Part shown: positions 19,032-54,581 of the stretch, in pieces
Numbering within the stretch: position 1 is the first letter of the stretch
Layout of the letters: each line of letters starts with the position of its first letter
NCBI RefSeq assembly: GCF_016026235.1
Contig: NZ_CP065613.1
Source: Escherichia coli
GTDB lineage: Bacteria; Pseudomonadota; Gammaproteobacteria; Enterobacterales; Enterobacteriaceae
Direction: 5' to 3' (one strand)
DNA length: 64,000 bases
Program-made: the position numbers and the translations under genes
Notes under the pieces: generated by a model
Database searches by the model: none
Told to the model about the DNA's origin: nothing
What the model saw: only the letters and a program-made list of their open reading frames with translations

Positions 19032-20405
19032 TTAATGCGCTTTTACGGCTTTGGCGGTTTTCTCTTTAAACAGATAGCCGATACCTAACACGATCAGCCA
19101 TACCGGGATCAGGTATACCGAAATCGCCATTCCTGGGGTCATCAGCATAATCACCAGTACCGCCGCCATAAACAGCAGGCAGATCCAGTTACCCAGCGGA
19201 TAAAGCAGAGCAGGGAAGCGAGTTACCACGCCTTGTTCCTGCTTGGCGCGACGGAATTTCATATGCGCCAGGCTAATCATCGCCCAGTTGATCACCAGTG
19301 CAGATACCACCAGTGCCATTAACAGGCCAAATGCGGATTCCGGAGCAAGATAGTTAATCAATACGCACAATGCTGTAACCAGCGCAGACACCAGAATGGT
19401 GTTAACCGGTACGCCGCGTTTATCGACAGACGCCAGCGCTTTTGGCGCATTACCCTGTTGTGCCAGACCAAACAGCATACGGCTGTTGCAATATACGCAG
19501 CTGTTGTACACGGAGAGCGCCGCAGTCAGTACCACGATGTTCAGCGCATTCGCCACAAAGGTATCGCCTAACTCGTGGAAGATCAGCACAAACGGACTGG
19601 TATCGGCGGTAACGCGGGTCCACGGCATCAGTGAGAGCAGAACGGCTAACGAACCAATATAGAAAATCAGGATGCGGTAGATAACCTGGTTAGTTGCTTT
19701 CGGGATACTTTGCTCCGGGTTATCAGCTTCTGCTGCGGTGATCCCCACCAGTTCCAGACCACCGAACGAGAACATGATAATCGCCATCATCATCACCAGC
19801 CCGGTGAAGCCGTGCGGCAGGAAACCACCCTGATCCCACAGGTTGCTAACGCTTGCCTGCGGACCGCCGTTACCACTGAACAGCAGCCAGCCGCCGAAGA
19901 TGATCATCGCTACTACCGCAATAACTTTGATAATGGCAAACCAGAACTCCATCTCACCAAACACTTTTACGTTGGTCAGGTTGATGGCGTTAATCACCAC
20001 AAAGAACACGGCGGCAGAAACCCAGGTTGGGATTTCCGGATACCAGAACTGAATGTATTTACCCACGGCAGTCAGCTCTGCCATGGCAACTAAAACGTAC
20101 AGTACCCAGTAGTTCCAGCCAGAGGCGAAACCGGCAAAACTGCCCCAGTATTTATAAGCAAAGTGGCTAAAGGAGCCTGCGACAGGTTCTTCGACCACCA
20201 TTTCACCCAGCTGACGCATGATCAGAAAGGCGATAAAACCAGCAATGGCGTATCCCAGGATAATCCCTGGCCCTGCGGACTGTATTACGGAGGCGCTACC
20301 CAGGAATAGCCCTGTCCCTATCGCGCCACCCAGCGCGATAAGCTGAATATGGCGGTTTTTAAGGCCGCGCTTTAGCTGCTCGCCGTGCTGTTGACCTTCC
20401 ATCAT
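19032..20405 (-). CDS. aroP: Aromatic amino acid permease AroP
   Basis: 457 aa APC-family permease MMEGQQHGEQLKRGLKNRHIQLIALGGAIGTGLF. Confidence 0.95.
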   Translation of the reverse strand: MMEGQQHGEQLKRGLKNRHIQLIALGGAIGTGLFLGSASVIQSAGPGIILGYAIAGFIAFLIMRQLGEMVVEEPVAGSFSHFAYKYWGSFAGFASGWNYWVLYVLVAMAELTAVGKYIQFWYPEIPTWVSAAVFFVVINAINLTNVKVFGEMEFWFAIIKVIAVVAMIIFGGWLLFSGNGGPQASVSNLWDQGGFLPHGFTGLVMMMAIIMFSFGGLELVGITAAEADNPEQSIPKATNQVIYRILIFYIGSLAVLLSLMPWTRVTADTSPFVLIFHELGDTFVANALNIVVLTAALSVYNSCVYCNSRMLFGLAQQGNAPKALASVDKRGVPVNTILVSALVTALCVLINYLAPESAFGLLMALVVSALVINWAMISLAHMKFRRAKQEQGVVTRFPALLYPLGNWICLLFMAAVLVIMLMTPGMAISVYLIPVWLIVLGIGYLFKEKTAKAVKAH

Positions 20406-20982
20406 GAAACCTCGTGCGGTGATTGTTTTTTTGATCTACGCAGTGATGCGTGTGTAAGTTTGCAATTCCGTTTGTTGTATTGATTTCTTTACGTTTCATG
20501 TAACTGAATTATGATAATGCTACTTTTAACTATCACAAGATAATGGTATGTGCCCGGGAATGCACCTGCTTTATGTAGATGCGTTGATTTTTTGGATAAA
20601 AAAAAACCAATTGTAAGTTTTTTTCACATTTTATAGATACTTTAAGTAGGATAACATGCTGTTTTAACTAGCTATACTTGTCATTCTTCAAGTTACATGT
20701 GCTGCAACTCGAATTATTTAGAGTATATAAACCGGATTTATTTGCCTGCTGAACAACATGCCTTAGGTACCAGCACGATAATCTTACGAAATGCCATATA
20801 AAAATAAATAGATGTTAATAATGCAGTGGGCTTGTAACGTAAGTATTTAAATATAATATTGCGAGATGAGTGAAAACGTTAAGTAATAGAAATAATTTTT
20901 CATTAAAAGCGTTTATAATTGATCGAGAAATAAGTTTTCTATTTAATGGAAATAAGTTAAGGATAAACGGGAATAAAATAAA

Positions 20983-22764
20983 GTGAGCGATATTGTTTAC
21001 CTGAGAATAATCGGTGAGAAGCAGGGCGATATTTCTTCAGGCTGTGGGACGTATGCGTCGGTTGGTAATCGCTGGCAGGTTGGCCATGAAGATGAAATTT
21101 TTGCCTTTGCACTCACCAACGCCATTACCAGTACTGGTAATGGCGTTAATCTACAGGGGCTACAATTTTGCAAACTCATTGATAAAAGCTCACCGCTACT
21201 GTCTAATGCCATCAATCAGAATGAGCGGTTATTTATTGAAATCGATTTGTATCGTATAAATAAAAGCGGGCGCTGGGAACGGTATTATTATATTCAGCTA
21301 AGAAATGCTTCATTAACTGCTATTCATGTAAACATTTCTGACAATAATCTTCCTACCGAATGTGTAACTGTCGATTATCACTACATATTATGTAAACATC
21401 TAATAGCCAATACGGAATTTGACTGGTTGGCCTTTCCTGCTGGCTATAATAGCTTATTTATTCCGCCTAAAAGCCCACCTGCCAGTAATCTTAAGCCTGA
21501 ACCTCTACCAGTTGTTAACCTTCCACTCTCTTCACCAGCGGTTAACCCGGTCTATGCCAAATCCTGTCTGAAGGAGAAGGGATGTACAGATGCTGGAACG
21601 GCAGAAGAACCCGCTGAAAACTTCGGTCAAGTAGCGATTTTTGCTCAGCCAGTGGTTGATGACTGCTGTGGATACCACCATCCCGAGGCTAACGATGTCG
21701 GGCAACCCGCAGAAGCTCAAACCATGCTACTGTTTCCGGGTAGTGTGTTGGCGGCTCAAATATGGGGAAAATGGTCGCTCAGTGGCATACTCAGTGCAAC
21801 CCGCGGCTCTTACATCGGTGCGTTGGCATCTGCTTTGTATATTCCCTCTGCGGGCGAGGGCAGTGCTCGCGTGCTCGGACGTGATGAGTTCTGGTATGAG
21901 GAAGAACTGCGGCAGAAAGCACTAGCAGGCAGTACCGCCACCACCCGGGTACGTTTTTTCTGGGGAACTGATATTCACGGCAAGCCTCAGGTGTATGGTG
22001 TTCATACGGGTGAAGGTACGCCGTATGAAAACGTCCGCGTGGCGAACATGCAGTGGAACGAGCAGACGCAGCGTTATGAATTTACCCCCGCTCACGATGT
22101 CGATGGCCCCCTGATTACCTGGACGCCGGAAAATCCGGAACATGGGAATGTTCCGGGCCATACCGGTAACGACAGGCCGCCGCTGGATCAGCCCACCATT
22201 CTGGTGACGCCGATTCCGGACGGTACAGATACCTATACCACGCCGCCATTCCCGGTTCCTGATCCGAAAGAATTCAACGATTATATTCTGGTTTTTCCGG
22301 CGGGATCCGGTATTAAGCCCATCTATGTTTACCTGAAGGAGGATCCGCGAAAGCTGCCTGGTGTTGTAACAGGGCGCGGCGTCCCGCTTTCATCAGGAAC
22401 TCGCTGGCTGGATATGTCGGTATCCAATAACGGCAACGGCGCGCCAATCCCGGCGCATATTGCTGATAAATTGCGCGGACGGGAGTTTAAAACCTTTGAT
22501 GAGTTTCGCGAGGCGCTGTGGCTGGAGGTGAGTCAGGATCCGGAGTTGATAGCGCAGTTTTCAAGTGGTAACCAAACACGTATAAAACAAGGATTAACCG
22601 CAAAAGCACCTATTGACGGTTGGCATTATGGCCCTAAAGAAATAGTTAAAAAATTCCAGATACATCATCGTGTTGCAATTGAATATGGCGGCAGCGTATA
22701 CGATATTGATAATTTACGAATTGTTACCCCCAGACTACACGATGAGATTCACTACAGGAGATAA
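20983..22764 (+). CDS. Hcp (T6SS tube protein) fused to a C-terminal colicin E9-type HNH DNase domain (Hcp-ET class effector)
   Basis: N-terminal ~165 aa Hcp-like (LRIIGEKQGDISSG, GHEDE, SPLLSNAI, QLRNASLTAIHV); Pro-rich linker; C-terminal ~130 aa alignable with colicin E9 DNase (GAPIPAHIADKLRGREFKTFDEFREALWLEVSQDPEL ... HHRVAIEYGGSVYDIDNLRIVTPRLHDEIH); GTG start in an AT-rich leader. Confidence 0.85.
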   Translation: MSDIVYLRIIGEKQGDISSGCGTYASVGNRWQVGHEDEIFAFALTNAITSTGNGVNLQGLQFCKLIDKSSPLLSNAINQNERLFIEIDLYRINKSGRWERYYYIQLRNASLTAIHVNISDNNLPTECVTVDYHYILCKHLIANTEFDWLAFPAGYNSLFIPPKSPPASNLKPEPLPVVNLPLSSPAVNPVYAKSCLKEKGCTDAGTAEEPAENFGQVAIFAQPVVDDCCGYHHPEANDVGQPAEAQTMLLFPGSVLAAQIWGKWSLSGILSATRGSYIGALASALYIPSAGEGSARVLGRDEFWYEEELRQKALAGSTATTRVRFFWGTDIHGKPQVYGVHTGEGTPYENVRVANMQWNEQTQRYEFTPAHDVDGPLITWTPENPEHGNVPGHTGNDRPPLDQPTILVTPIPDGTDTYTTPPFPVPDPKEFNDYILVFPAGSGIKPIYVYLKEDPRKLPGVVTGRGVPLSSGTRWLDMSVSNNGNGAPIPAHIADKLRGREFKTFDEFREALWLEVSQDPELIAQFSSGNQTRIKQGLTAKAPIDGWHYGPKEIVKKFQIHHRVAIEYGGSVYDIDNLRIVTPRLHDEIHYRR

Positions 22765-22766
22765 AT

Positions 22767-23051
22767 ATGTTTAAAGAAAAGCTCCAGGATTATACCGAGG
22801 ATGAATTTCTTAATTTTTTAGGCGGATTGAGATCATCTATGAAAGATGGAAAATCCTTAAAAGGTAAGGAGCTAGAAATGTACTGGGATTCATTAGTAGA
22901 TCATTTTATTGAAATTACACAGCATCCGTCAGGGAGCGATCTAATTTTCTACCCTAAAAGTCAAGGAGATGATAAGCCTGAAAACATCCTGAAAATTGTC
23001 AAAGAATGGCGGCGTTCACAGGGGTTACCCTTGTTTAAAGACTCTAAATAA
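22767..23051 (+). CDS. Colicin-DNase immunity protein (Im9-like), cognate to the Hcp-DNase
   Basis: 94 aa; DYTEDEFLNFL ... ITQHPSGSDLIFYP ... resembles Im9 (DYTEAEFL ... TEHPSGSDLIYYP); starts 3 nt after the toxin stop. Confidence 0.85.
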   Translation: MFKEKLQDYTEDEFLNFLGGLRSSMKDGKSLKGKELEMYWDSLVDHFIEITQHPSGSDLIFYPKSQGDDKPENILKIVKEWRRSQGLPLFKDSK

Positions 23052-23204
23052 AGTAGATAATAAAACTATATATGGAACATCATCGCATCTGGCTAATGCG
23101 ATGATATTAATGACATAAAATAATAATGTGATTGCTCTTAAAAAACAGGTAAAAATACTGAAGCCTCATTAGGTTATTTTATCATTTTCCCGCTTTTACC
23201 GATA

Positions 23205-23458
23205 CCCTTTGGCTGGAGGTGAGTCAGTATCCGGAGTTGATAGCGCAGTTTTCAAGCGGTAATCAAACACGTATAAAACAAGGATTAATCGCAAAAGCAC
23301 CACTTGAAGGTTGGCATTATGGCACTAAAGAAATCGTTAAAAAATTCCACATGGATCATCGTGTTGCGATTGAATATAGTGGCGGAATTTACGATATTGA
23401 TAATTTAAGGAGGGCACACCTCATTTGCATGATGAAATTTATTACAGGAGATAGTTAA
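23205..23458 (+). pseudogene. Orphan HNH-DNase C-terminal fragment, no Hcp or linker, frameshifted at the 3' end
   Basis: Homology to the primary toxin begins abruptly at WLEVSQYPELIAQFSSGNQTRIKQGL...; the final HDEIYYRR motif is out of frame. Confidence 0.7.
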
Positions 23459-23749
23459 ATGTATAATTTTAAAGATAAAATAGAAGATTACACAGAGCGG
23501 GAATTCATTGAGTTGCTTGGCGAGTTTACAAATCCAACCGGGGATAACGCTCAATTAAAAGGGGAAGAGCTTGACAAATATTGGGATGATCTAGAAGAAC
23601 ATCTTACCAGAATTACACAACATCCGTTGATGAGCGATCTTATCTACTATCCTGCAAAGAAGGGAGATGATGAACCTGAAAACATCCTGAAAATTGTCAA
23701 AGAATGGCGGCGTTCACAGGGGCTACCCTTGTTTAAAGACTCTAAATAA
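23459..23749 (+). CDS. Orphan Im9-like immunity protein (variant 2)
   Basis: 96 aa; divergent N-terminal half, C-terminal PENILKIVKEWRRSQGLPLFKDSK identical to immunity 1. Confidence 0.8.
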   Translation: MYNFKDKIEDYTEREFIELLGEFTNPTGDNAQLKGEELDKYWDDLEEHLTRITQHPLMSDLIYYPAKKGDDEPENILKIVKEWRRSQGLPLFKDSK

Positions 23750-23901
23750 AGTAGATAATAAAACTATATATGGAACATCATCGCGTCTGGCTAATGCGAT
23801 GATGTTAATAACATAAAATAATAATGTGGGTGCTCTTAATAAACAGGTAAAATACTGAAATCTCATTAGGTTATTTTATCAATTTCCCGCTTTCACCGAT
23901 A

Positions 23902-24152
23902 CCCTTTGGCTGGAGGTGAGTCAGTATCCGGAGTTGATAGCGCAGTTTTCAACTGGTAACCAAACACGTATAAAACAAGGATTAATCGCAAAAGCGCCTC
24001 TTGAAGGTTGGCATTATGGATCTAAGGAAATTGTTGAAGAATTCCATATATATCATAGTGTTGCGATTGAATGTGGTGGCGAAATTTATTATATTGATAA
24101 TTAAAGGATTGTTACGTCTCGACTACATGATGAAATTCACTACAGGAGATAA
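23902..24152 (+). pseudogene. Orphan HNH-DNase C-terminal fragment with premature stop (TTA to TAA) before the terminal catalytic His motif
   Basis: WLEVSQYPELIAQFSTGNQTRIKQGLIAKAPLEGWHYGSKEIVEEFHIYHSVAIECGGEIYYIDN-stop, then in-frame RIVTSRLHDEIHYRR. Confidence 0.7.
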
Positions 24153-24448
24153 TGTATATGCATGATTTAAAATATAAAATATATTTTTACACAGAAGGTG
24201 AATTTCTTGAAATGCTTGAGGAGATAGTAAATGCAACTAGCAAAGATAAATCCCTAAAAGGGAAAAAATTAGAAAAATATCTCGATACCTTAGTGGATCA
24301 TTTCATTAAAATTACTGAACATCCTAAAAAGGGAGATCCCATTTTCTATCCTAATTCCCCAGAAGATGGTAAACCTGAAAACATCCTGAAAATCGTCAAA
24401 GAATGGCGGCGTTCGCAAGGATTGCCTTTGTTCAAAGATTCAGAATGA
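24152..24448 (+). CDS. Orphan Im9-like immunity protein (variant 3)
   Basis: 98 aa; conserved C-terminal PENILKIVKEWRRSQGLPLFKDSE, divergent N-terminal half. Confidence 0.8.
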   Translation: MYMHDLKYKIYFYTEGEFLEMLEEIVNATSKDKSLKGKKLEKYLDTLVDHFIKITEHPKKGDPIFYPNSPEDGKPENILKIVKEWRRSQGLPLFKDSE

Positions 24449-24855
24449 ACTCTAAACAGAATCTGTCACCTGAAAATCATCACGTTCTGGTTAAGTGATG
24501 ATTTTCGCTACGAGAAGGTTACGGTGGCGATTGTAGTGATAATAAGCAATGTAAAAAGAAAACATAGGTAAATACTACCTTTCTCTCCTTCCCTGAACAT
24601 TCATTTTACATATTAATTCACATAATTGAATTGTTATGCGTTTTGTTGCTTGGTGAATCGGTTCAGAGGAAATATTTTTTCGTTTCAATTCTGTTAATCT
24701 CACCCCTTGATGGGTAAATTTAACATTTGTGCATAGTTACAACTTTGAAACGTTATATATGTCAAGTTGTTAAAATGTGCACAGTTTCATGATTTCAATC
24801 AAAACCTGTATGGACATAAGGTGAATACTTTGTTACTTTAGCGTCACAGACATGA

Positions 24856-24872
24856 AATTGGTAAGACCAATT
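24856..24872. promoter_or_regulatory. PdhR operator palindrome AATTGGTAAGACCAATT
   Basis: Perfect inverted repeat matching the PdhR box, ~30 bp upstream of the pdhR start. Confidence 0.8.
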
Positions 24873-24903
24873 GACTTCGGCAAGTGGCTTAAGACAGGAA
24901 CTC

Positions 24904-25668
24904 ATGGCCTACAGCAAAATCCGCCAACCAAAACTCTCCGATGTGATTGAGCAGCAACTGGAGTTTTTGATCCTCGAAGGCACTCTCCGCCCGGGCGAAA
25001 AACTCCCACCGGAACGCGAACTGGCAAAACAGTTTGACGTCTCCCGTCCCTCCTTGCGTGAGGCGATTCAACGTCTCGAAGCGAAGGGCTTGTTGCTTCG
25101 TCGCCAGGGTGGCGGCACTTTTGTCCAGAGCAGCCTATGGCAAAGCTTCAGCGATCCGCTGGTGGAGCTGCTCTCCGACCATCCTGAGTCACAGTATGAC
25201 TTGCTCGAAACACGACACGCCCTGGAAGGTATCGCCGCTTATTACGCCGCGCTGCGTAGTACCGATGAAGACAAGGAACGCATCCGTGAACTCCATCACG
25301 CCATAGAACTGGCGCAGCAGTCTGGCGATCTGGACGCGGAATCAAACGCCGTACTCCAGTATCAGATTGCTGTCACTGAAGCGGCCCACAATGTGGTTCT
25401 GCTTCATCTGCTAAGGTGTATGGAGCCGATGTTGGCCCAGAATGTCCGCCAGAACTTCGAATTGCTCTATTCGCGTCGCGAGATGCTGCCGCTGGTGAGT
25501 AGTCACCGCACCCGCATATTTGAAGCGATTATGGCCGGTAAGCCGGAAGAAGCGCGCGAAGCATCGCATCGCCATCTGGCCTTTATCGAAGAAATTTTGC
25601 TCGACAGAAGTCGTGAAGAGAGCCGCCGTGAGCGTTCTCTGCGTCGTCTGGAGCAACGAAAGAATTAG
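24904..25668 (+). CDS. pdhR: Pyruvate dehydrogenase complex repressor PdhR (GntR family)
   Basis: 254 aa from [26 protein letters not shown]...; the ORF track adds 11 upstream codons. Confidence 0.95.
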
Positions 25669-25828
25669 TGATTTTTCTGGTAAAAATTATCCAGAAGATG
25701 TTGTAAATCAAGCGCATATAAAAGCGCGGCAACTAAACGTAGAACCTGTCTTATTGAGCTTTCCGGCGAGAGTTCAATGGGACAGGTTCCAGAAAACTCA
25801 ACGTTATTAGATAGATAAGGAATAACCC

Positions 25829-44586: not shown

Positions 44587-44802
44587 ATGAGCAACCTACG
44601 AAAATATCGAGAGTCACTGAATATCTCTCAAACAACACTTGCTAAGGCGGTTGGATGCACACAGGGAGCTATTGGGCATTGGGAATCTGGTCGTCGCTTC
44701 CCAGACCTTAAAACATGCCGCGCTCTTGTTGCATGCCTAAACAAGTTAGGCGCAAAAGTCAGTCTTGATGACGTGTTCCCTCCGGAACACAAAGCCGCTT
44801 AA
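44587..44802 (+). CDS. cro: Cro-like HTH repressor (non-lambda)
   Basis: 71 aa MSNLRKYRESLNISQTTLAKAVGCTQGAIGHWESGRR..., divergent from cI across a ~36 bp operator region. Confidence 0.75.
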   Translation: MSNLRKYRESLNISQTTLAKAVGCTQGAIGHWESGRRFPDLKTCRALVACLNKLGAKVSLDDVFPPEHKAA

Positions 44803-44921
44803 GACATTCCAGCTCTTACACATTCCAGCCCTGAAAAAGGGCATCCAATTAAACCACACCTATGGTGTATGCATTTATTTGCATACATTCAATCAATTGT
44901 TGTCTAAGGAAATACTTACAT

Positions 44922-45290
44922 ATGGTTCGTGCAAACAAACGCAACGAGGCTCTACGAATCGAGAGTGCGTTGCTTAACAAAATCGCAATGCTTGGAACTG
45001 AGAAGACAGCGGAAGCTGTGGGAGTTGATAAGTCGCAGATCAGCAGGTGGAAGAGGGACTGGATTCCAAAGTTCTCAATGCTGCTTGCTGTTCTTGAATG
45101 GGGCGTCGTTGACGACGATATGGCTCGATTGGCACGACAAGTTGCTTCGATTCTCACCAATAAAAACGCCCGGTGTGGCAAACCGAGCGTTCTGAACAAA
45201 TCCAGATGGAGTTCTGAGGTCATTACTGGATCTATCAACAGGAGTCATTATGACAAATACAGCAAAAATACTCAACTTCGGCAGAGGTAA
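44922..45290 (+). CDS. cII: cII transcriptional activator, C-terminus divergent from lambda (possible frameshift)
   Basis: Residues 1-80 match lambda cII (MVRANKRNEALRIESALLNKIAMLGTEKTAEAVGVDKSQISRWKRDW...); the lambda C-terminal EQIQMEF is encoded in another frame. Confidence 0.7.
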   Translation: MVRANKRNEALRIESALLNKIAMLGTEKTAEAVGVDKSQISRWKRDWIPKFSMLLAVLEWGVVDDDMARLARQVASILTNKNARCGKPSVLNKSRWSSEVITGSINRSHYDKYSKNTQLRQR

Positions 45291-49922: not shown

Positions 49923-50258
49923 GTTTGTTTCCTGTTGCGTTACGCGAATCATTATAGAGTGTGTTGTGTCATTCGCAACCGTTGGTTTGACAAAAACACA
50001 TATCCGGGGCTATATTCCCTGAACGCCAGCAAATCTGGCGTCGGGATTGGCGTCCCGGATATCGAAACGGTGCATAACCGCGCTGGCGGTTTTTTTATGC
50101 GCTAAGCACAGTCACATTCGCGATTTATGGTGGGCTGTGTGGGGGAGTTGAGAGACTCGCCGGATGTTTCGACCGGTTACGCCAACCCTGCACAGTTCAC
50201 CACCCAGCGATTGGCGTCGCAGGTGGTGAGTTAAAAACCATCGAAACGCGAGGTCGTT

Positions 50259-50945
50259 ATGACTGTTCAGATTTCTGTCAAAAACCTTTCCCCTGTTACC
50301 TATAACCAGATTCCGGTAATCACAACTGAGTTGCTTGCCCGCCTTTATGGAACAGAAACAATCCGTATACAGCAGAATCACCATGAAAATAAATCTCGGT
50401 TTATTGAGGGAAAGCACTTCTTTAAAGCTGTTGGTGATGAACTCAGAAATTTGCGACTAGTTTTAAACGAGTCGCAAAATGAGGTGAAAATCTCTCCCAA
50501 AACCCGCTCGCTCATCCTCTGGACAGAACGAGGCGCAGCCCGCCACGCAAAAATGCTCGAAACCGATCAGGCGTGGGAAGTGTTCGAAAAACTGGAAGAC
50601 TGCTATTTCAGCCAGACTTCGAAAAGCGCAGGTCATCACGAGAAGAAAACCAGCGAGCTTTCTGCAAAAGATGCAAACAGTCTGGTATGGTTGTGGGATT
50701 ATGCCAACCGCTCACAGGCATTATTCCGCGAACTGTATCCGGCGCTAAGACAAATTCAGTCTAACTATTCCGGCAGATGCCACGACTACGGTCATGAGTT
50801 CTCGTATGTTATCGGAATGGCGAGAGACGTTTTAATCAATCACACACGAGATGTTGATATTAATGAGCCAGACGGACCAACGAATCTTTCTGCATGGGTA
50901 AGACTTAAGAACAAAGAATTACCTCCTTCACTACATCACTACTGA
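50259..50945 (+). CDS. ORF6N-domain antirepressor-like protein
   Basis: 228 aa; N-terminal ORF6N-like segment ([36 protein letters not shown]). Confidence 0.55.
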
Positions 50946-52399: not shown

Positions 52400-52584
52400 A
52401 CGCCACAATTCAAACGATACCAGAGCTTCTTATCCAGACACGAGGCAATCAGACCGAAGTGGCGAGGATGCTTTCCTGCGCAAGAGGAACAGTGCTCAAG
52501 TACAACCGAGACAGCAAAGGCGAGCGTCACGTAATAGTTAACGGCGTCCTGATGGTCAAACAGGGCAAAAGGGGAAGACGATGA
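52396..52584 (+). CDS. ninH: NinH-like protein
   Basis: 62 aa ...RGNQTEVARMLSCARGTVLKY..., located just upstream of Q. Confidence 0.65.
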   Translation: MNATIQTIPELLIQTRGNQTEVARMLSCARGTVLKYNRDSKGERHVIVNGVLMVKQGKRGRR

Positions 52585-53099
52585 GCATAAGAGAACTAAA
52601 CCTCACCAAAGAACAGCACGAGTGGCTGAATGGCTGGCTTGAACTGTGGGGCGCATGGGTTTATTCAGGTCGTCTGGAAAAGCGTATGAGCAGCGTAATA
52701 GCGAAGTTCATGGAGAGCGTAGAGCCGGGAAGAGTTATGACAAGGCCAATGTGCAATGATGATGATGGAATGTTGATTTCTCAGGTCGTCGATTCCGTCA
52801 TGTGCATTGACAAGAAAGCCTTTGGCATCCTCCTCAGCTACTACGCTCATGGTTCATCTAAGCGAGCAATTGCATCCTACTATCACGCGACTGCAAAGCC
52901 ACGCAAGATGTGTGGACGTGGTGGCGAGGGATGGAGAAAACCTTCACTGGCAACCTGTAGAAACGAAATTGACGACATCCTGAAAGCGTCGTTATTTGTT
53001 TTGTACCAGCCAATGCAAAATGCTTTCAAAATGCGTAAACGTGTTGAGAAAGTTAAGCATTTTGCTGTTAAAGACCTTGACATGCAATTATCCATTTAG
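52581..53099 (+). CDS. Q: Late-gene antiterminator Q (non-lambda type)
   Basis: 172 aa ORF in the Q position, directly followed by a pR'-like promoter and terminator. Confidence 0.65.
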   Translation: MSIRELNLTKEQHEWLNGWLELWGAWVYSGRLEKRMSSVIAKFMESVEPGRVMTRPMCNDDDGMLISQVVDSVMCIDKKAFGILLSYYAHGSSKRAIASYYHATAKPRKMCGRGGEGWRKPSLATCRNEIDDILKASLFVLYQPMQNAFKMRKRVEKVKHFAVKDLDMQLSI

Positions 53100-53106
53100 C
53101 CATAAT
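53077..53106 (+). promoter_or_regulatory. Putative late promoter pR' (TTGACA-18 bp-CATAAT)
   Basis: Consensus -35 and near-consensus -10 overlapping the Q stop codon. Confidence 0.55.
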
Positions 53107-53120
53107 TAGAAGGTAAGCTG

Positions 53121-53158
53121 CCGTTAGTGACTCTTAAGTTGCAACGGTGGCTTTTTTT
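53121..53158 (+). terminator. Putative tR' (stem-loop plus T7 run), Q-antiterminated
   Basis: ccgttag...caacggtggc followed by ttttttt. Confidence 0.5.
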
Positions 53159-53162
53159 ATTT

Positions 53163-53237
53163 GGGTCAGTCGTATAAAGGTCATTACGGAAGGCTGTTAA
53201 CCTTCTTATCGTGGTTCGAGTCCACGCTGTCCCGCCA
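53163..53237 (+). tRNA. tRNA-like sequence, anticodon GUU (Asn), imperfect acceptor and D stems; possibly degenerate
   Basis: Anticodon arm gaagg-CTGTTAA-ccttc, T arm cgtgg-TTCGAGT-ccacg, 3' CCA; one mismatch in the acceptor stem, weak D stem. Confidence 0.35.
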
Positions 53238-53242
53238 AATAT

Positions 53243-53318
53243 GCTGGTTTAGCTCCAATGGTAGAGCAGTCGCCTTGTAAGCGAATGGGTAGCGGTTCAA
53301 GTCCGTTAACCAGCACCA
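53243..53318 (+). tRNA. tRNA, anticodon UGU (Thr), 76 nt with encoded CCA
   Basis: 7-bp acceptor stem GCTGGTT/AACCAGC, D arm GCTC-CAATGGTA-GAGC, anticodon loop CTTGTAA, T arm AGCGG-TTCAAGT-CCGTT, discriminator A, CCA. Confidence 0.6.
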
Positions 53319-53434
53319 TAACTGAGCCGTAGCCACTGGCTATCCTGAATTCATCAGTGACAGTTACGCTGCGGCCTTCTTTTTCCCTTCCCAATATAAG
53401 AACTACGCCATCCGTTATTTGCGGAGGTGAGGCT

Positions 53435-53650
53435 ATGAAATCCATGGACAAAATATCAACGGGCATTGCCTACGGCACCTCCGCAGGCAGTGCCGGCTAC
53501 TGGTTTTTACAGTGGCTTGATCAGGTCAGTCCATCACAGTGGGCTGCGATTGGTGTGCTGGGAAGTCTGCTTCTGGGGCTTCTGACTTATCTGACGAATC
53601 TGTATTTCAAAATAAGAGAAGATAAGCGTAAGGCTGCGAGAGGTGAATAA
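53435..53650 (+). CDS. S: Phage 21-type pinholin S (dual-start; antiholin from Met1, holin from Met4)
   Basis: [45 protein letters not shown]... matches S21. Confidence 0.9.
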
Positions 53651-54147
53651 TGTCGCCATCATTACGCAAGGCTGTTGCAGTTGCTATTGGTGGCGGGGCT
53701 GTTGCTATAGCATCTGTGTTAATCACTGGCCCAGGTGGTAACGATGGTCTGGAAGGTGTCAGCTACATACCATACAAAGATATCATTGGTGTATGGACTG
53801 TATGTCACGGACACACCGGAAAAGACATCATGCCTGGTAAAACGTATACCGAAGCAGAATGCAAAGCTCTCCTGAATAAAGACCTTGCCACTGTCGCCAG
53901 ACAAATTAACCCGTACATCAAAGTCGATATACCGGAAACAACGCGCGGCGCTCTTTACTCGTTCGTTTACAACGTGGGCGCTGGCAATTTCAGAACATCG
54001 ACGCTTCTTCGCAAAATAAACCAGGGCGATATCAAAGGCGCATGTGACCAGCTACGTCGCTGGACATATGCTGGCGGTAAGCAATGGAAAGGGCTGATGA
54101 CCCGTCGTGAGATTGAGCGTGAAGTCTGTTTGTGGGGGCAGCAATGA
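53650..54147 (+). CDS. R: SAR endolysin R (phage 21-type lysozyme)
   Basis: 165 aa with N-terminal signal-arrest-release segment ([18 protein letters not shown]) and lysozyme domain. Confidence 0.9.
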
Positions 54148-54581
54148 GCAGAGTCACCGCGATTATCTCCGCTCTGGTTATCTGCATCATCGTCCGCCTG
54201 TCATGGGCTGTTAATCATTACCGTGATAACGCCATTACCTACAAAGAGCAGCGCGATAAGGCCACATCCATCATCTCTGATATGCAGAAGCGTCAACGTG
54301 ATGTAGCAGAACTCGACGCCAGATACACAAAGGAGCTTGCTGATGCTAACGCGACTATCGAAAGTCTCCGTGCTGATGTTTCTGCTGGTCGTAAGCGCCT
54401 GCAAGTCGCCGCCACCTGTGCAAAGTCAACGACCGGAGCCAGCAGCATGGGCTATGGAGAAAGCCCAGGACTTACAGCAGATGCTGAACTCAATTATTAC
54501 CGTCTCCGAAGTGGAATCGACAGGATAACCGCGCAGGTTAACTACCTGCAGGAATACATCAGGACGCAATGCCTGAAATAA
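54144..54581 (+). CDS. Rz: Spanin inner-membrane subunit Rz
   Basis: 145 aa [17 protein letters not shown]..., coiled coil. Confidence 0.85.
54337..54528 (+). CDS. Rz1: Spanin outer-membrane lipoprotein Rz1, nested in the +1 frame of Rz
   Basis: Lipobox LVVSAC followed by a Pro-rich segment; exact start uncertain. Confidence 0.65.

Follow-up and report, generated by a model that had tools for sequence, protein, structure and literature searches.

A probable late-gene switch of the phage 21/phage L type carrying a tRNA-Asn/tRNA-Thr pair in an Escherichia coli prophage

Is the DNA between the late antiterminator gene and the lysis genes of this lambdoid prophage a late-gene switch, and why does it carry two tRNA genes? 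The locus lies in a 64-kb stretch of DNA (64,000 nucleotides, here called the window), and all of the features described below are on its + strand. We judge it highly probable (roughly 0.85) that a lambdoid prophage of the phage 21/phage L type has its late-gene switch here, with the tRNA pair carried as a mobile cassette. The anatomy of the locus, its homology to known phages, and the validity of both tRNAs are established below. As a genome feature, this one is already known: dozens of records annotate the same promoter, pause element, terminator, and tRNA pair, and since the arrangement is on record for phage 21, Sf6, and BTP1 as well as for many other phages, the locus is real but ordinary. 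About half of the complete E. coli genomes contain a match. The phage-L-type variant of the Q21 switch is illustrated here by a clean case that is fully mapped, and the sole fresh angle of the locus is an antidefense reading of the tRNA pair.

The open reading frame that precedes the control region (52581 to 53099) encodes a 172-amino-acid Q antiterminator of the Q21 family, corresponding to the allele of phage L and Sf6. Pfam analysis assigned the protein to PF06530 (1.3e-25), and a phmmer comparison with the PDB gave a full-length match to Q21 (6JNX/6P18; E, 5.6e-90). The protein is 84% identical to Q21 and 97% identical to Sf6 gp59. Alignment with Q21 revealed that residues 1 to 100 are near-identical and that 23 of the 26 differences fall within the 62 C-terminal residues from 101 to 162; beyond these, the protein has a 10-amino-acid C-terminal extension that is absent from the phage 21 protein. 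The divergent C-terminal part is the part that contacts the Q-binding element (QBE) (PMC8022706). Phages L/ST64T and Sf6/BTP1, which are P22-like, also have Q21-type antiterminators; in the prophage studied here, unlike in these phages, the terminase, portal, and capsid module is lambda-like.

A preliminary description of this DNA had placed a pR'-tR' late control region here, with a TTGACA-18-CATAAT promoter overlapping the Q stop codon, and closer analysis bore out both statements. The -35 hexamer TTGACA (53077 to 53082) and the -10 hexamer CATAAT (53101 to 53106) are separated by 18 nt and span 53077 to 53106 at the 3' end of the Q gene, the stop codon of which (TAG, 53097 to 53099) lies within the spacer. 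This predicted sigma-70 promoter matches the consensus at 11 of 12 positions. Matches of at least 11/12 were found three times on the two strands of the 64-kb window, compared with 0.77 expected from a first-order Markov simulation, and therefore the pR' hexamers by themselves are only mildly unusual. The case for a promoter at this site is made by its position and by homology: the promoter, pause element, and terminator align base for base with those annotated in phage 21 (GenBank OL657228), whose record supports its -35, QBE, -10, start site, pause element, and terminator annotations by citing the literature. The phage 21 -10 hexamer is AACACT with a 17-nt spacer, compared with CATAAT and 18 nt here. 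The probable transcription start, placed by homology only, is the G at 53113, which aligns with the annotated phage 21 start site.

The preliminary description named the parts of this control region correctly but overlooked both the putative 8-bp Q-binding repeats in the promoter spacer and a sigma-dependent pause element (SDPE) overlapping the 5' arm of the terminator. The putative QBE (53086 to 53101) consists of two direct 8-bp repeats, AATTATCC (53086 to 53093) and ATTTAGCC (53094 to 53101), and was recognized from its position and from its match to phage L, in which AATTATCC/ATTTAGCC is the putative QBE (PMC8022706). The Q stop codon falls inside the second putative repeat, ATTTAGCC. In position the repeats are homologous to the phage 21 QBE, ATTGAGCA/AATGAGCA, but their sequence is different. 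In the mechanism of Q21, two Q protomers occupy a pair of directly repeated subsites, each of 8 bp, that lie between the -35 and -10 hexamers (bioRxiv 10.1101/651190), and the Q protein encoded here would be expected to bind the variant repeats AATTATCC/ATTTAGCC. These comparisons point to a phage-L-type variant of the Q21 switch, in which the C terminus of Q and the DNA repeats appear to have diverged together. Such codivergence would represent a natural specificity swap, one that can be compared against the solved Q21-QBE structure.

The SDPE, a -10-like TAAGCTG (53114 to 53120), is identical to the annotated phage 21 SDPE and is invariant in nearly all of the approximately 120 related loci. 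It overlaps the 5' arm of the hairpin of the tR' intrinsic terminator (53115 to 53162), which comprises a hairpin (53115 to 53153), a run of seven U residues (53152 to 53158), and then AUUU. RNA spanning 53113 to 53162 folded into a 17-pair hairpin of -20.2 kcal/mol (z = -5.4), and none of 200 shuffled sequences folded as well; the stem-loop/T7 terminator originally proposed downstream of the promoter is thus a strong hairpin followed by U7 (53115 to 53158). tR' was not reported by a simple terminator scan, probably because the bulged 17-pair stem fails the stem-and-loop rule of the scan, and folding was required to find it. The phage 21 terminator, which is 100% identical to tR', is annotated from PMID 1704887. 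An older phage 21 record annotates the leader of approximately 50 nt as misc_RNA.

The two candidate tRNAs downstream of tR' were checked with ARAGORN and against Rfam RF00005 (gathering score, 29 bits). ARAGORN found exactly two tRNAs in the 64-kb window, tRNA-Asn(GUU) (53163 to 53237; 75 nt, with G73 and an encoded CCA) and tRNA-Thr(UGU) (53243 to 53318; 76 nt, with G1-C72, C2-G71, A73, and an encoded CCA). Rfam likewise accepted both, with scores of 55.3 bits (E, 1.3e-10) and 61.5 bits (E, 2.7e-12), respectively, and the tRNA-Thr(UGU) of 76 nt with its encoded CCA therefore is as genuine as had been supposed. In E. coli tRNA-Thr, the ThrRS identity set comprises G1-C72, C2-G71, G35, and U36, and all four features are present in the sequence. 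Covariation was assessed first among clade variants and then with divergent homologs from P7, N4, and T4-like and jumbo phages. For tRNA-Thr the closely related clade alone gave a weak signal; in the family including P7, RCS47, and N4, 10 pairs showed compensatory changes, and none of 500 shuffles was as good. Comparison with host genes, a check that the preliminary description had also called for, showed that the tRNAs are approximately 58% (Asn) and 67% (Thr) identical to K-12 asnT and thrU and that their acceptor stems differ, and recent capture of both tRNAs from the host was rejected.

Pfam analysis of the first late genes (53435 to 54581) identified an S21-type pinholin with a dual start (53435/53444 to 53650; PF04971), a SAR-type lysozyme (53650 to 54147; PF00959), and an Rz spanin (54132 to 54581; PF03245), so that the tRNAs do lie between Q and the lysis genes, as first described. 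These genes match the annotation of phage 21, in which the S21 pinholin, SAR endolysin, and Rz are also downstream. The lysis, terminase, portal, and capsid genes all lie downstream on the same strand.

The pR'/SDPE/tR'/Q mechanism has been demonstrated for phage 21, and that of Q21 has been described (bioRxiv 10.1101/651190). By analogy, RNA polymerase would start at the constitutive pR' (approximately 53113) and pause at the -10-like TAAGCTG. Without Q, it would stop at the tR' hairpin and release a leader RNA of approximately 45 to 50 nt. Once Q had accumulated, two protomers would bind the direct repeats in the spacer and load onto the paused polymerase, rendering it terminator resistant. 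The first products of read-through would be tRNA-Asn(GUU) together with tRNA-Thr(UGU), both presumably excised by host tRNA-processing enzymes, and the lysis and virion genes would come next. The logic is that of the lambda pR'-6S RNA-tR' region, where a constitutive promoter, a sigma-dependent pause, a terminator, and Q-mediated read-through likewise precede the lysis genes; the lambda Q family is unrelated. The lambda 6S leader, at 194 nt, is much longer than the leader here. A promoter scan of 53107 to 53163, between pR' and the tRNAs, found no promoter-like sites, and an independent tRNA promoter was rejected, there being no candidate for it in this interval. From the position of the genes, we accept the reading that tRNA expression in this prophage would depend on Q. 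A literature search on tRNA expression in BTP1 found nothing relevant.

What, then, would the tRNAs be for? The cassette would supply phage-type isoacceptors in late growth, and the likely benefit would be that ACA/ACG and AAC/AAU decoding could continue when host tRNAs are limiting, whether through the rarity of ACA in the host or through cutting by TOPRIM tRNases (P2 OLD and PARIS AriB). One account is pure codon supplementation, in which the tRNAs boost phage-favored codons and have no role against host nucleases; this we consider possible, at rather less than even odds. It has been proposed for the tRNA-Asn of phage L (PMC8022706). ACA occurs at 12.8 to 15.8 per 1,000 codons in prophage genes and at 3.5 in sampled host genes, an enrichment of approximately 4-fold, and ACA and ACG together account for 49% of the Thr codons in late genes versus 17% in the host sample. 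In the host, Thr(UGU) is encoded by thrU alone, the sole copy in E. coli K-12. The codon usage comparison that had been suggested for the late genes gave no support for Asn supplementation: these genes show no enrichment of Asn codons (39.5 per 1,000, compared with 37.7 in the host sample), and E. coli has several asn tRNA genes. Also weighing against pure codon supplementation, an identical tRNA-Thr is functionally resistant to OLD and host thrU is not, and the Asn(GUU)-Thr(UGU) pairing both recurs in the unrelated P7, RCS47, N4, and T5 and matches nuclease target sets.

The other account, which we put forward just as tentatively, is that the Asn-Thr pair may be a dedicated counterdefense cassette of temperate coliphages and not a codon usage aid. 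The pair might deliver cleavage-resistant copies of the tRNAs destroyed by TOPRIM abortive-infection nucleases carried on P2/P4-type elements, and its placement as the first product could time the tRNAs to late protein synthesis. P2 OLD has five tRNA targets, including Thr(UGU), and expression of the HK446 tRNA-Thr(UGU), whose sequence is identical to that of the tRNA-Thr here, restores plating of P2 OLD-sensitive phages (bioRxiv 10.64898/2026.07.10.737580, a 2026 preprint). PARIS AriB targets host Lys-UUU (its main target), Thr(UGU), and Asn(GUU) and requires U39; Lys, Thr(UGU), and Asn(GUU) variants from T5 jointly neutralize PARIS. The tRNA pair thus matches the target lists of two recently characterized tRNA-cutting defense systems. 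Host U39 is replaced by G in the phage tRNA-Thr and by C in the phage tRNA-Asn; positions 36 to 41 read UAAGCG and UAACCU in these phage tRNAs, compared with UAAUCA and UAAUCC in their host counterparts, and position 41 and positions 27 to 29 also differ from the host. Both tRNAs therefore combine nuclease-target anticodons with substitutions at determinant positions, a pattern that would be consistent with an anti-PARIS role for the pair.

The counterdefense account might also extend to other phages. The Asn gene overlooked in HK446 could be the second half of the module, and the recurrence of the pair in lambdoid, P1-like, and N4 phages could reflect the same selection. As here, Asn(GUU) and Thr(UGU) tRNAs are both found in P7, RCS47, and N4, adjacent to each other in P7 and RCS47 and split by tRNA-Ser(UGA) in N4. 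The Thr tRNAs of these three phages are homologs of the prophage tRNA-Thr and share its acceptor stem and C31-G39, whereas the tRNA-Asn of P7 and N4 belongs to another lineage. In P7 (P1/P7 type), it is the C1-controlled Op(ban) operator that lies just upstream of the pair rather than a Q-controlled promoter. If the pair is an antidefense module, such a module is present in the late leader of very many prophages of E. coli and Salmonella.

Several observations argue against such a role. PARIS mainly targets tRNA-Lys(UUU), which is missing from the cassette, whereas the anti-PARIS tRNAs of T5 include Lys, and four of the five tRNAs that OLD targets are likewise absent. Neither lambda nor OLD toxicity was rescued by a single tRNA (bioRxiv 10.64898/2026.07.10.737580), and the authors of that preprint pointed to a protein inhibitor of OLD that HK446 encodes in addition, suggesting on this ground that its tRNA may have no connection with OLD. 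About half of the related phages lack the tRNA pair.

The preliminary description had termed the Asn gene degenerate and tRNA-like, and we think it improbable that it is a decayed, nonfunctional remnant beside which the Thr gene alone works. The acceptor stem mismatch noted at the outset is real but is limited to a single pair, U4·U69; U13·U22 also is unpaired, and the variable loop has 4 nt. The 70 copies from the closely related clade, which represent 15 alleles, gave no compensatory signal, and a few alleles have disruptive changes (indels, U33C, and stem-breaking substitutions). The gene is, moreover, unannotated in the HK446 record and overlooked in the OLD preprint, each of which mentions one tRNA only. 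Against decay, ARAGORN accepts the element, its Rfam score of 55 bits exceeds the threshold of 29, and the GUU anticodon, G73, and CCA all are kept. It belongs to a strongly covarying family of phage tRNA-Asn genes from T4-like and jumbo phages, in which 11 of 21 pairs showed compensatory changes (0 of 500 shuffles were as good) and 94.6% of alignment cells are paired. The whole family shares the unpaired 13:22 and the variable loop of 4 nt; the tRNA-Asn departs from the family consensus solely at pair 4:69, where U·G has become U·U, and two alleles restore this pair to G·U or U·G. Of the 70 copies, 54 are identical, across phages that differ in Q type and second tRNA, and the sequence is the same in phage 21, Sf6, HK446, JLK-2012, and Salfasec13b. 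The tRNA-Asn is a genuine phage tRNA gene, not a degenerate one. AsnRS recognizes G34, U35, U36, and G73; the tRNA has the GUU anticodon and G73 and may be aminoacylated.

Flanked by tR' on one side and a conserved boundary sequence on the other, the tRNA pair forms a self-contained mobile cassette. Among 123 loci with the same tR', 62 carry Asn plus Thr and 52 carry a lambda-type leader between the same flanks. HK446 is 100% identical from 53153 to 53330, a range that covers both tRNAs, and has this identical pair behind a lambda-type Q and pR', unlike the Q21-type arrangement here. The flank shared by tRNA-type and lambda-type cassettes, a mosaic boundary (53319 to 53380) defined by comparison with Sf6 and lambda-type loci, comprises a hairpin (53326 to 53375) followed by CUUCUUUUU; homology with Sf6 stops at 53380, and the flank is labeled "bsq3; boundary sequence" in CUS-3. 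The fold of 53319 to 53434 had a z score of -3.3. A gathering-threshold scan of the alternative-cassette segment in nine loci found no Rfam families.

It is very improbable that the tRNA-shaped RNAs are mainly processing or boundary elements rather than decoders, whether through RNase P and RNase E cuts that separate off the pR' leader and fix the late mRNA's 5' end or through tRNA sequences acting as recombination joints: the tRNA-Asn does begin 4 nt past the terminator U-tract, the cassette does fit exactly between conserved mosaic boundary sequences, and hybrid and fused tRNAs (the Thr of JLK-2012 and the Asn/Gly fusions of loci L034, L111, and L122) do show recombination inside tRNAs, but anticodons, identity elements, and full cloverleaf covariation are kept, none of which processing signals need, tRNA-Thr must decode for phage rescue from OLD, and the lambda-type cassette does the same job without tRNAs.

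The late-gene switch with its mobile tRNA cassette resembles known phages to different degrees. Phage 21 has the same gene order and matches the prophage at 100% identity in the SDPE, the terminator, and both tRNAs. The same Asn and Thr tRNAs are annotated in Sf6, BTP1, and others; phage L has in the Thr slot an aberrant second tRNA that ARAGORN rejects. The whole prophage was found in no complete E. coli genome, the best match covering 62% of it at 93% identity, and E. coli FDAARGOS_943, whose aceE is 100% identical, is without the prophage. Stx phage 933W carries ileZ-argN-argO between its Q-controlled late promoter and terminator and its first late genes, with tRNA species (Ile, Arg, and Arg) and a Q type that differ from those here. 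Past the boundary, Sf6 has lambda-type lysis genes, unlike the S21-type genes here. Lambda has the same conserved flank ahead of its lysis genes, and a 194-bp non-tRNA segment (44786 to 44979; orf-64) occupies the slot of the tRNA pair.

E. coli chromosome makes up the left half of the window (aceE there is 100% identical to that of an E. coli strain), and phage genes lie at the locus; the element carrying the late control region is therefore a prophage. Sequence after lpd, from about 32100 onward, is unlike that of strain FDAARGOS_943, where yacH and acnB stand. The prophage, or another island, starts near 32.1 kb and extends beyond the window end. The whole element was found in no complete E. 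coli genome (best match, 62% coverage at 93% identity). Just upstream of aceE, G+C content is low at 20000-26000 (0.42-0.44 versus about 0.51-0.53 in the flanking chromosome).

The Q antiterminator ORF (52581-53099; 172 amino acids; Pfam Phage_antitermQ) encodes a full-length match to the solved Q21 structures 6JNX and 6P18 (E value, 5.6e-90). The preliminary description had placed a consensus promoter over the Q stop, and this is what was observed: TTGACA (53077-53082) and CATAAT (53101-53106) form an 11/12 match, with the stop codon TAG (53097-53099) inside the 18-nt spacer. The window contains 3 matches of this quality versus 0.77 expected, only a modest excess, and so the assignment of the site as the late promoter, pR', rests on position and homology. 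The other two, both TTGACA-18-TATATT, are in the prophage part at 49987-50016 (plus strand), upstream of an ORF at 50259-50945, and at 35093-35064 (minus strand). Alignment with phage 21 places the putative transcription start at G53113, ahead of a sigma-dependent pause element (SDPE), TAAGCTG (53114-53120), that is 100% identical in phage 21. RNA folded from 53113 forms a 17-pair hairpin (53115-53153; -20.2 kcal/mol, z = -5.4) followed by seven U, corroborating the stem-loop terminator, tR', reported after the promoter.

The curated phage 21 record has the identical order of -35, Q-binding element (QBE), -10, transcription start, SDPE, and terminator, followed by tRNA-Asn, tRNA-Thr, pinholin, SAR endolysin, and spanins; Sf6 is annotated likewise. 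In the window, the tRNAs are followed by an S21-type pinholin (dual start), lysozyme, and Rz, and then by terminase, portal, and capsid genes. From the SDPE through tR' and both tRNAs, the window is 100% identical to phage 21; the differences are limited to the 3' part of Q and the promoter spacer and -10. Within Q, 23 of the 26 differences from Q21 fall in residues 101 to 162, and there is a 10-residue extension. This divergent segment is the one that contacts the QBE (PMC8022706). The QBE repeats of phage 21 are ATTGAGCA/AATGAGCA, whereas the putative QBE of the window is AATTATCC (53086-53093) and ATTTAGCC (53094-53101), exactly the pair given as the likely QBE of phage L (PMC8022706). By its C-terminal divergence and its repeats, the Q21-type switch of the window is of the phage-L/Sf6 allele. 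For Q21, two protomers bind the direct repeat and then load onto the sigma-paused complex, where they form a nozzle at the RNA exit channel (bioRxiv 10.1101/651190). Each feature in the preliminary description was observed. It named the right type of switch in the right place, and its interpretation was essentially correct, but it overlooked the QBE and SDPE. Eight related viral contigs (L013, L018, L025, L035, L043, L082, L102, and L112) have, 75 nt upstream of tR', a third type of promoter region that lacks TTGACA (...GAATGAAATATCATACCGTTTAAAGATG) and runs into the same SDPE and tR'; this implies a third Q specificity on the same pause/terminator module.

The segment was present in 115 phage records, mostly at 95-99% identity, including Sf6, BTP1, SPN9CC, and phage 21, and many of these annotate tRNA-Asn and tRNA-Thr. 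Among complete E. coli genomes it was matched in 2,584 of 5,426; in three (H40 to H42), the query region contains an insert of about 700 bp with an HNH endonuclease annotation. Published papers and public annotation already cover the late switch and tRNA pair.

ARAGORN, run on the 64-kb window, accepted both tRNA candidates and predicted no others. tRNA-Thr(UGU) (53243-53318; Rfam, 61.5 bits; gathering score, 29) has an encoded CCA, as originally noted, together with G1-C72, C2-G71, and A73. Its compensatory pairs number two within the clade and ten across P7, RCS47, N4, and related copies. In one viral contig (L044, about 2750 onward), foreign DNA interrupts this gene after GGTAGAG in the D arm. 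Recent host capture of either tRNA is ruled out by acceptor and anticodon stems unlike those of K-12 asnT and thrU.

The tRNA-Asn(GUU) element (53163-53237; CCA encoded) had been considered degenerate. The acceptor mismatch, U4·U69, is real, U13·U22 is unpaired, and the variable loop has 4 nt; the Rfam score is nevertheless 55.3 bits (gathering score, 29). Among 70 copies from viral contigs with the same terminator, 54 were identical to the window and the rare variants carried no compensatory signal; these copies by themselves would not settle its status. Searching with greater sensitivity recovered homologs in the T4-like phages G2285, STP4-a, and Morganella MP1, as well as in jumbo phages of Erwinia. 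In the alignment with these homologs, 11 of 21 pairs show both-sided changes, 94.6% of cells are paired, and none of 500 shuffles was as good. The unpaired 13:22 and 4-nt variable loop are traits of the whole family. At 4:69 the family consensus is U·G, one G-to-U change from the window allele, and two clade alleles have U·G or G·U. The identity set of AsnRS is the GUU anticodon plus G73, and the window tRNA has both. Because of this covarying family, the anticodon, and G73, we regard the element as a bona fide tRNA-Asn gene, with charging predicted. The first reading is amended to a proper Asn gene with one mismatch, with Q-binding repeats and a pause element added and the allele assigned to the phage-L/Sf6 type.

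A scan of viral contigs for the tR' hairpin yielded 120 loci; phage 21, Sf6, and the window bring the terminator copies to 123. Asn plus Thr followed 62 of the 123, and another segment, starting TTTGCACAACAGGTAAGAGCATTG, followed 52; the latter corresponds to lambda 44786-44979, directly after lambda's own tR'. A flank (53319-53380), labeled as boundary sequence in the CUS-3 record, is common to both types, 3' of each. The tRNA pair is thus a cassette. An identical pair occurs in phage HK446 (L126, 1511-1666; 100% identity to window 53153-53330), but behind a lambda-type Q and pR'. The GenBank record of HK446 (NC_019714) is without tRNA annotation, and a 2026 preprint on the phage P2 nuclease OLD mentions one HK446 tRNA only (bioRxiv 10.64898/2026.07.10.737580). 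The same slot is filled by Asn-Phe-Thr in Tbat2_3, by Asn, a hybrid Thr, and Gly(UCC) in JLK-2012, and by Asn plus an aberrant second tRNA in L-type phages. In JLK-2012 (L128, 429-582), the hybrid Thr switches from phage-type sequence in its 5' half to host thrU-type sequence in its 3' half and precedes a glyT-like tRNA-Gly(UCC), which suggests recombination with the host thrU-glyT operon. This Gly(UCC) species belongs among the reported OLD targets. In L034, L111, and L122, the Asn 5' part is fused onto a JLK-2012-type Gly 3' end, consistent with deletion.

No further promoter-like site was found between pR' and the tRNAs, and from their position both would be the first products of the Q-antiterminated transcript. 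Codon counts give codon supplementation partial support: ACA is enriched in prophage genes (12.8-15.8 per 1000 codons versus 3.5 in sampled host genes), but the late genes show no excess of Asn codons over the same host sample. A counter-defence cassette is a possibility, and the only part of this analysis with some novelty. AriB, the tRNA-cutting nuclease of PARIS, acts on host Lys(UUU) and Thr(UGU) and, less strongly, on Asn(GUU), cutting between positions 40 and 41 in the motif U36-A-A-U39-C; a change of U39 abolishes cleavage, and T5 variants of the three tRNAs jointly neutralise PARIS (PMC12409363). Positions 36 to 41 read UAAGCG (Thr) and UAACCU (Asn) in the phage tRNAs, which therefore both lack U39, versus UAAUCA and UAAUCC in the host; such differences at nuclease-determinant positions could arise by chance in any diverged tRNA. 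The PARIS target set includes tRNA-Lys, which the cassette lacks. P7, RCS47, and N4 also pair Asn(GUU) with Thr(UGU). Reported targets of OLD are Thr(UGU), Gly(UCC), fMet, Val(UAC), and Pro(UGG); expression of HK446 Thr(UGU) allows OLD-sensitive phages to plate again, whereas host Thr(UGU) fails (bioRxiv 10.64898/2026.07.10.737580). The window tRNA-Thr is sequence-identical to the HK446 gene, and this identity lends experimental support to its being a working decoder and probably nuclease-resistant. In the same preprint, single tRNAs failed to rescue lambda, and the additional presence of a protein inhibitor in HK446 leads the authors to doubt that its tRNA serves against OLD (bioRxiv 10.64898/2026.07.10.737580). 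The counter-defence reading is thus preprint-supported for Thr, via the identical gene, and hypothetical for Asn.

The lambda-type leader that replaces the tRNAs in roughly half of the loci sharing this tR' (e.g., just after tR' in L018, L038, L009, L040, L047, L093, and L030) has a long conserved stem, CACAACAGGTAAGAGCATTG ... CAGTGCTCTTWYCGTTGTG, enclosing an apical insert of 30-90 nt in at least six unrelated versions. It matched no Rfam family at gathering score, and we know of no described function. Inside the variable insert of one viral contig (L030:2189-2235) is a complete hammerhead type I core, CUGACGAG ... GGACGAAAC ... GCGUC (RF00163, 24.7 bits, E value 0.001, below the gathering score of 34). 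In the flank after tRNA-Thr, a hairpin closed by 8 pairs, GCCGUAGC...GCUGCGGC, and followed by CUUCUUUUU occupies 53326-53384 (z = -3.3 for the fold of 53319-53434). Unannotated in the phage 21 record, it may serve as a second terminator or mark a site of processing ahead of the holin gene.
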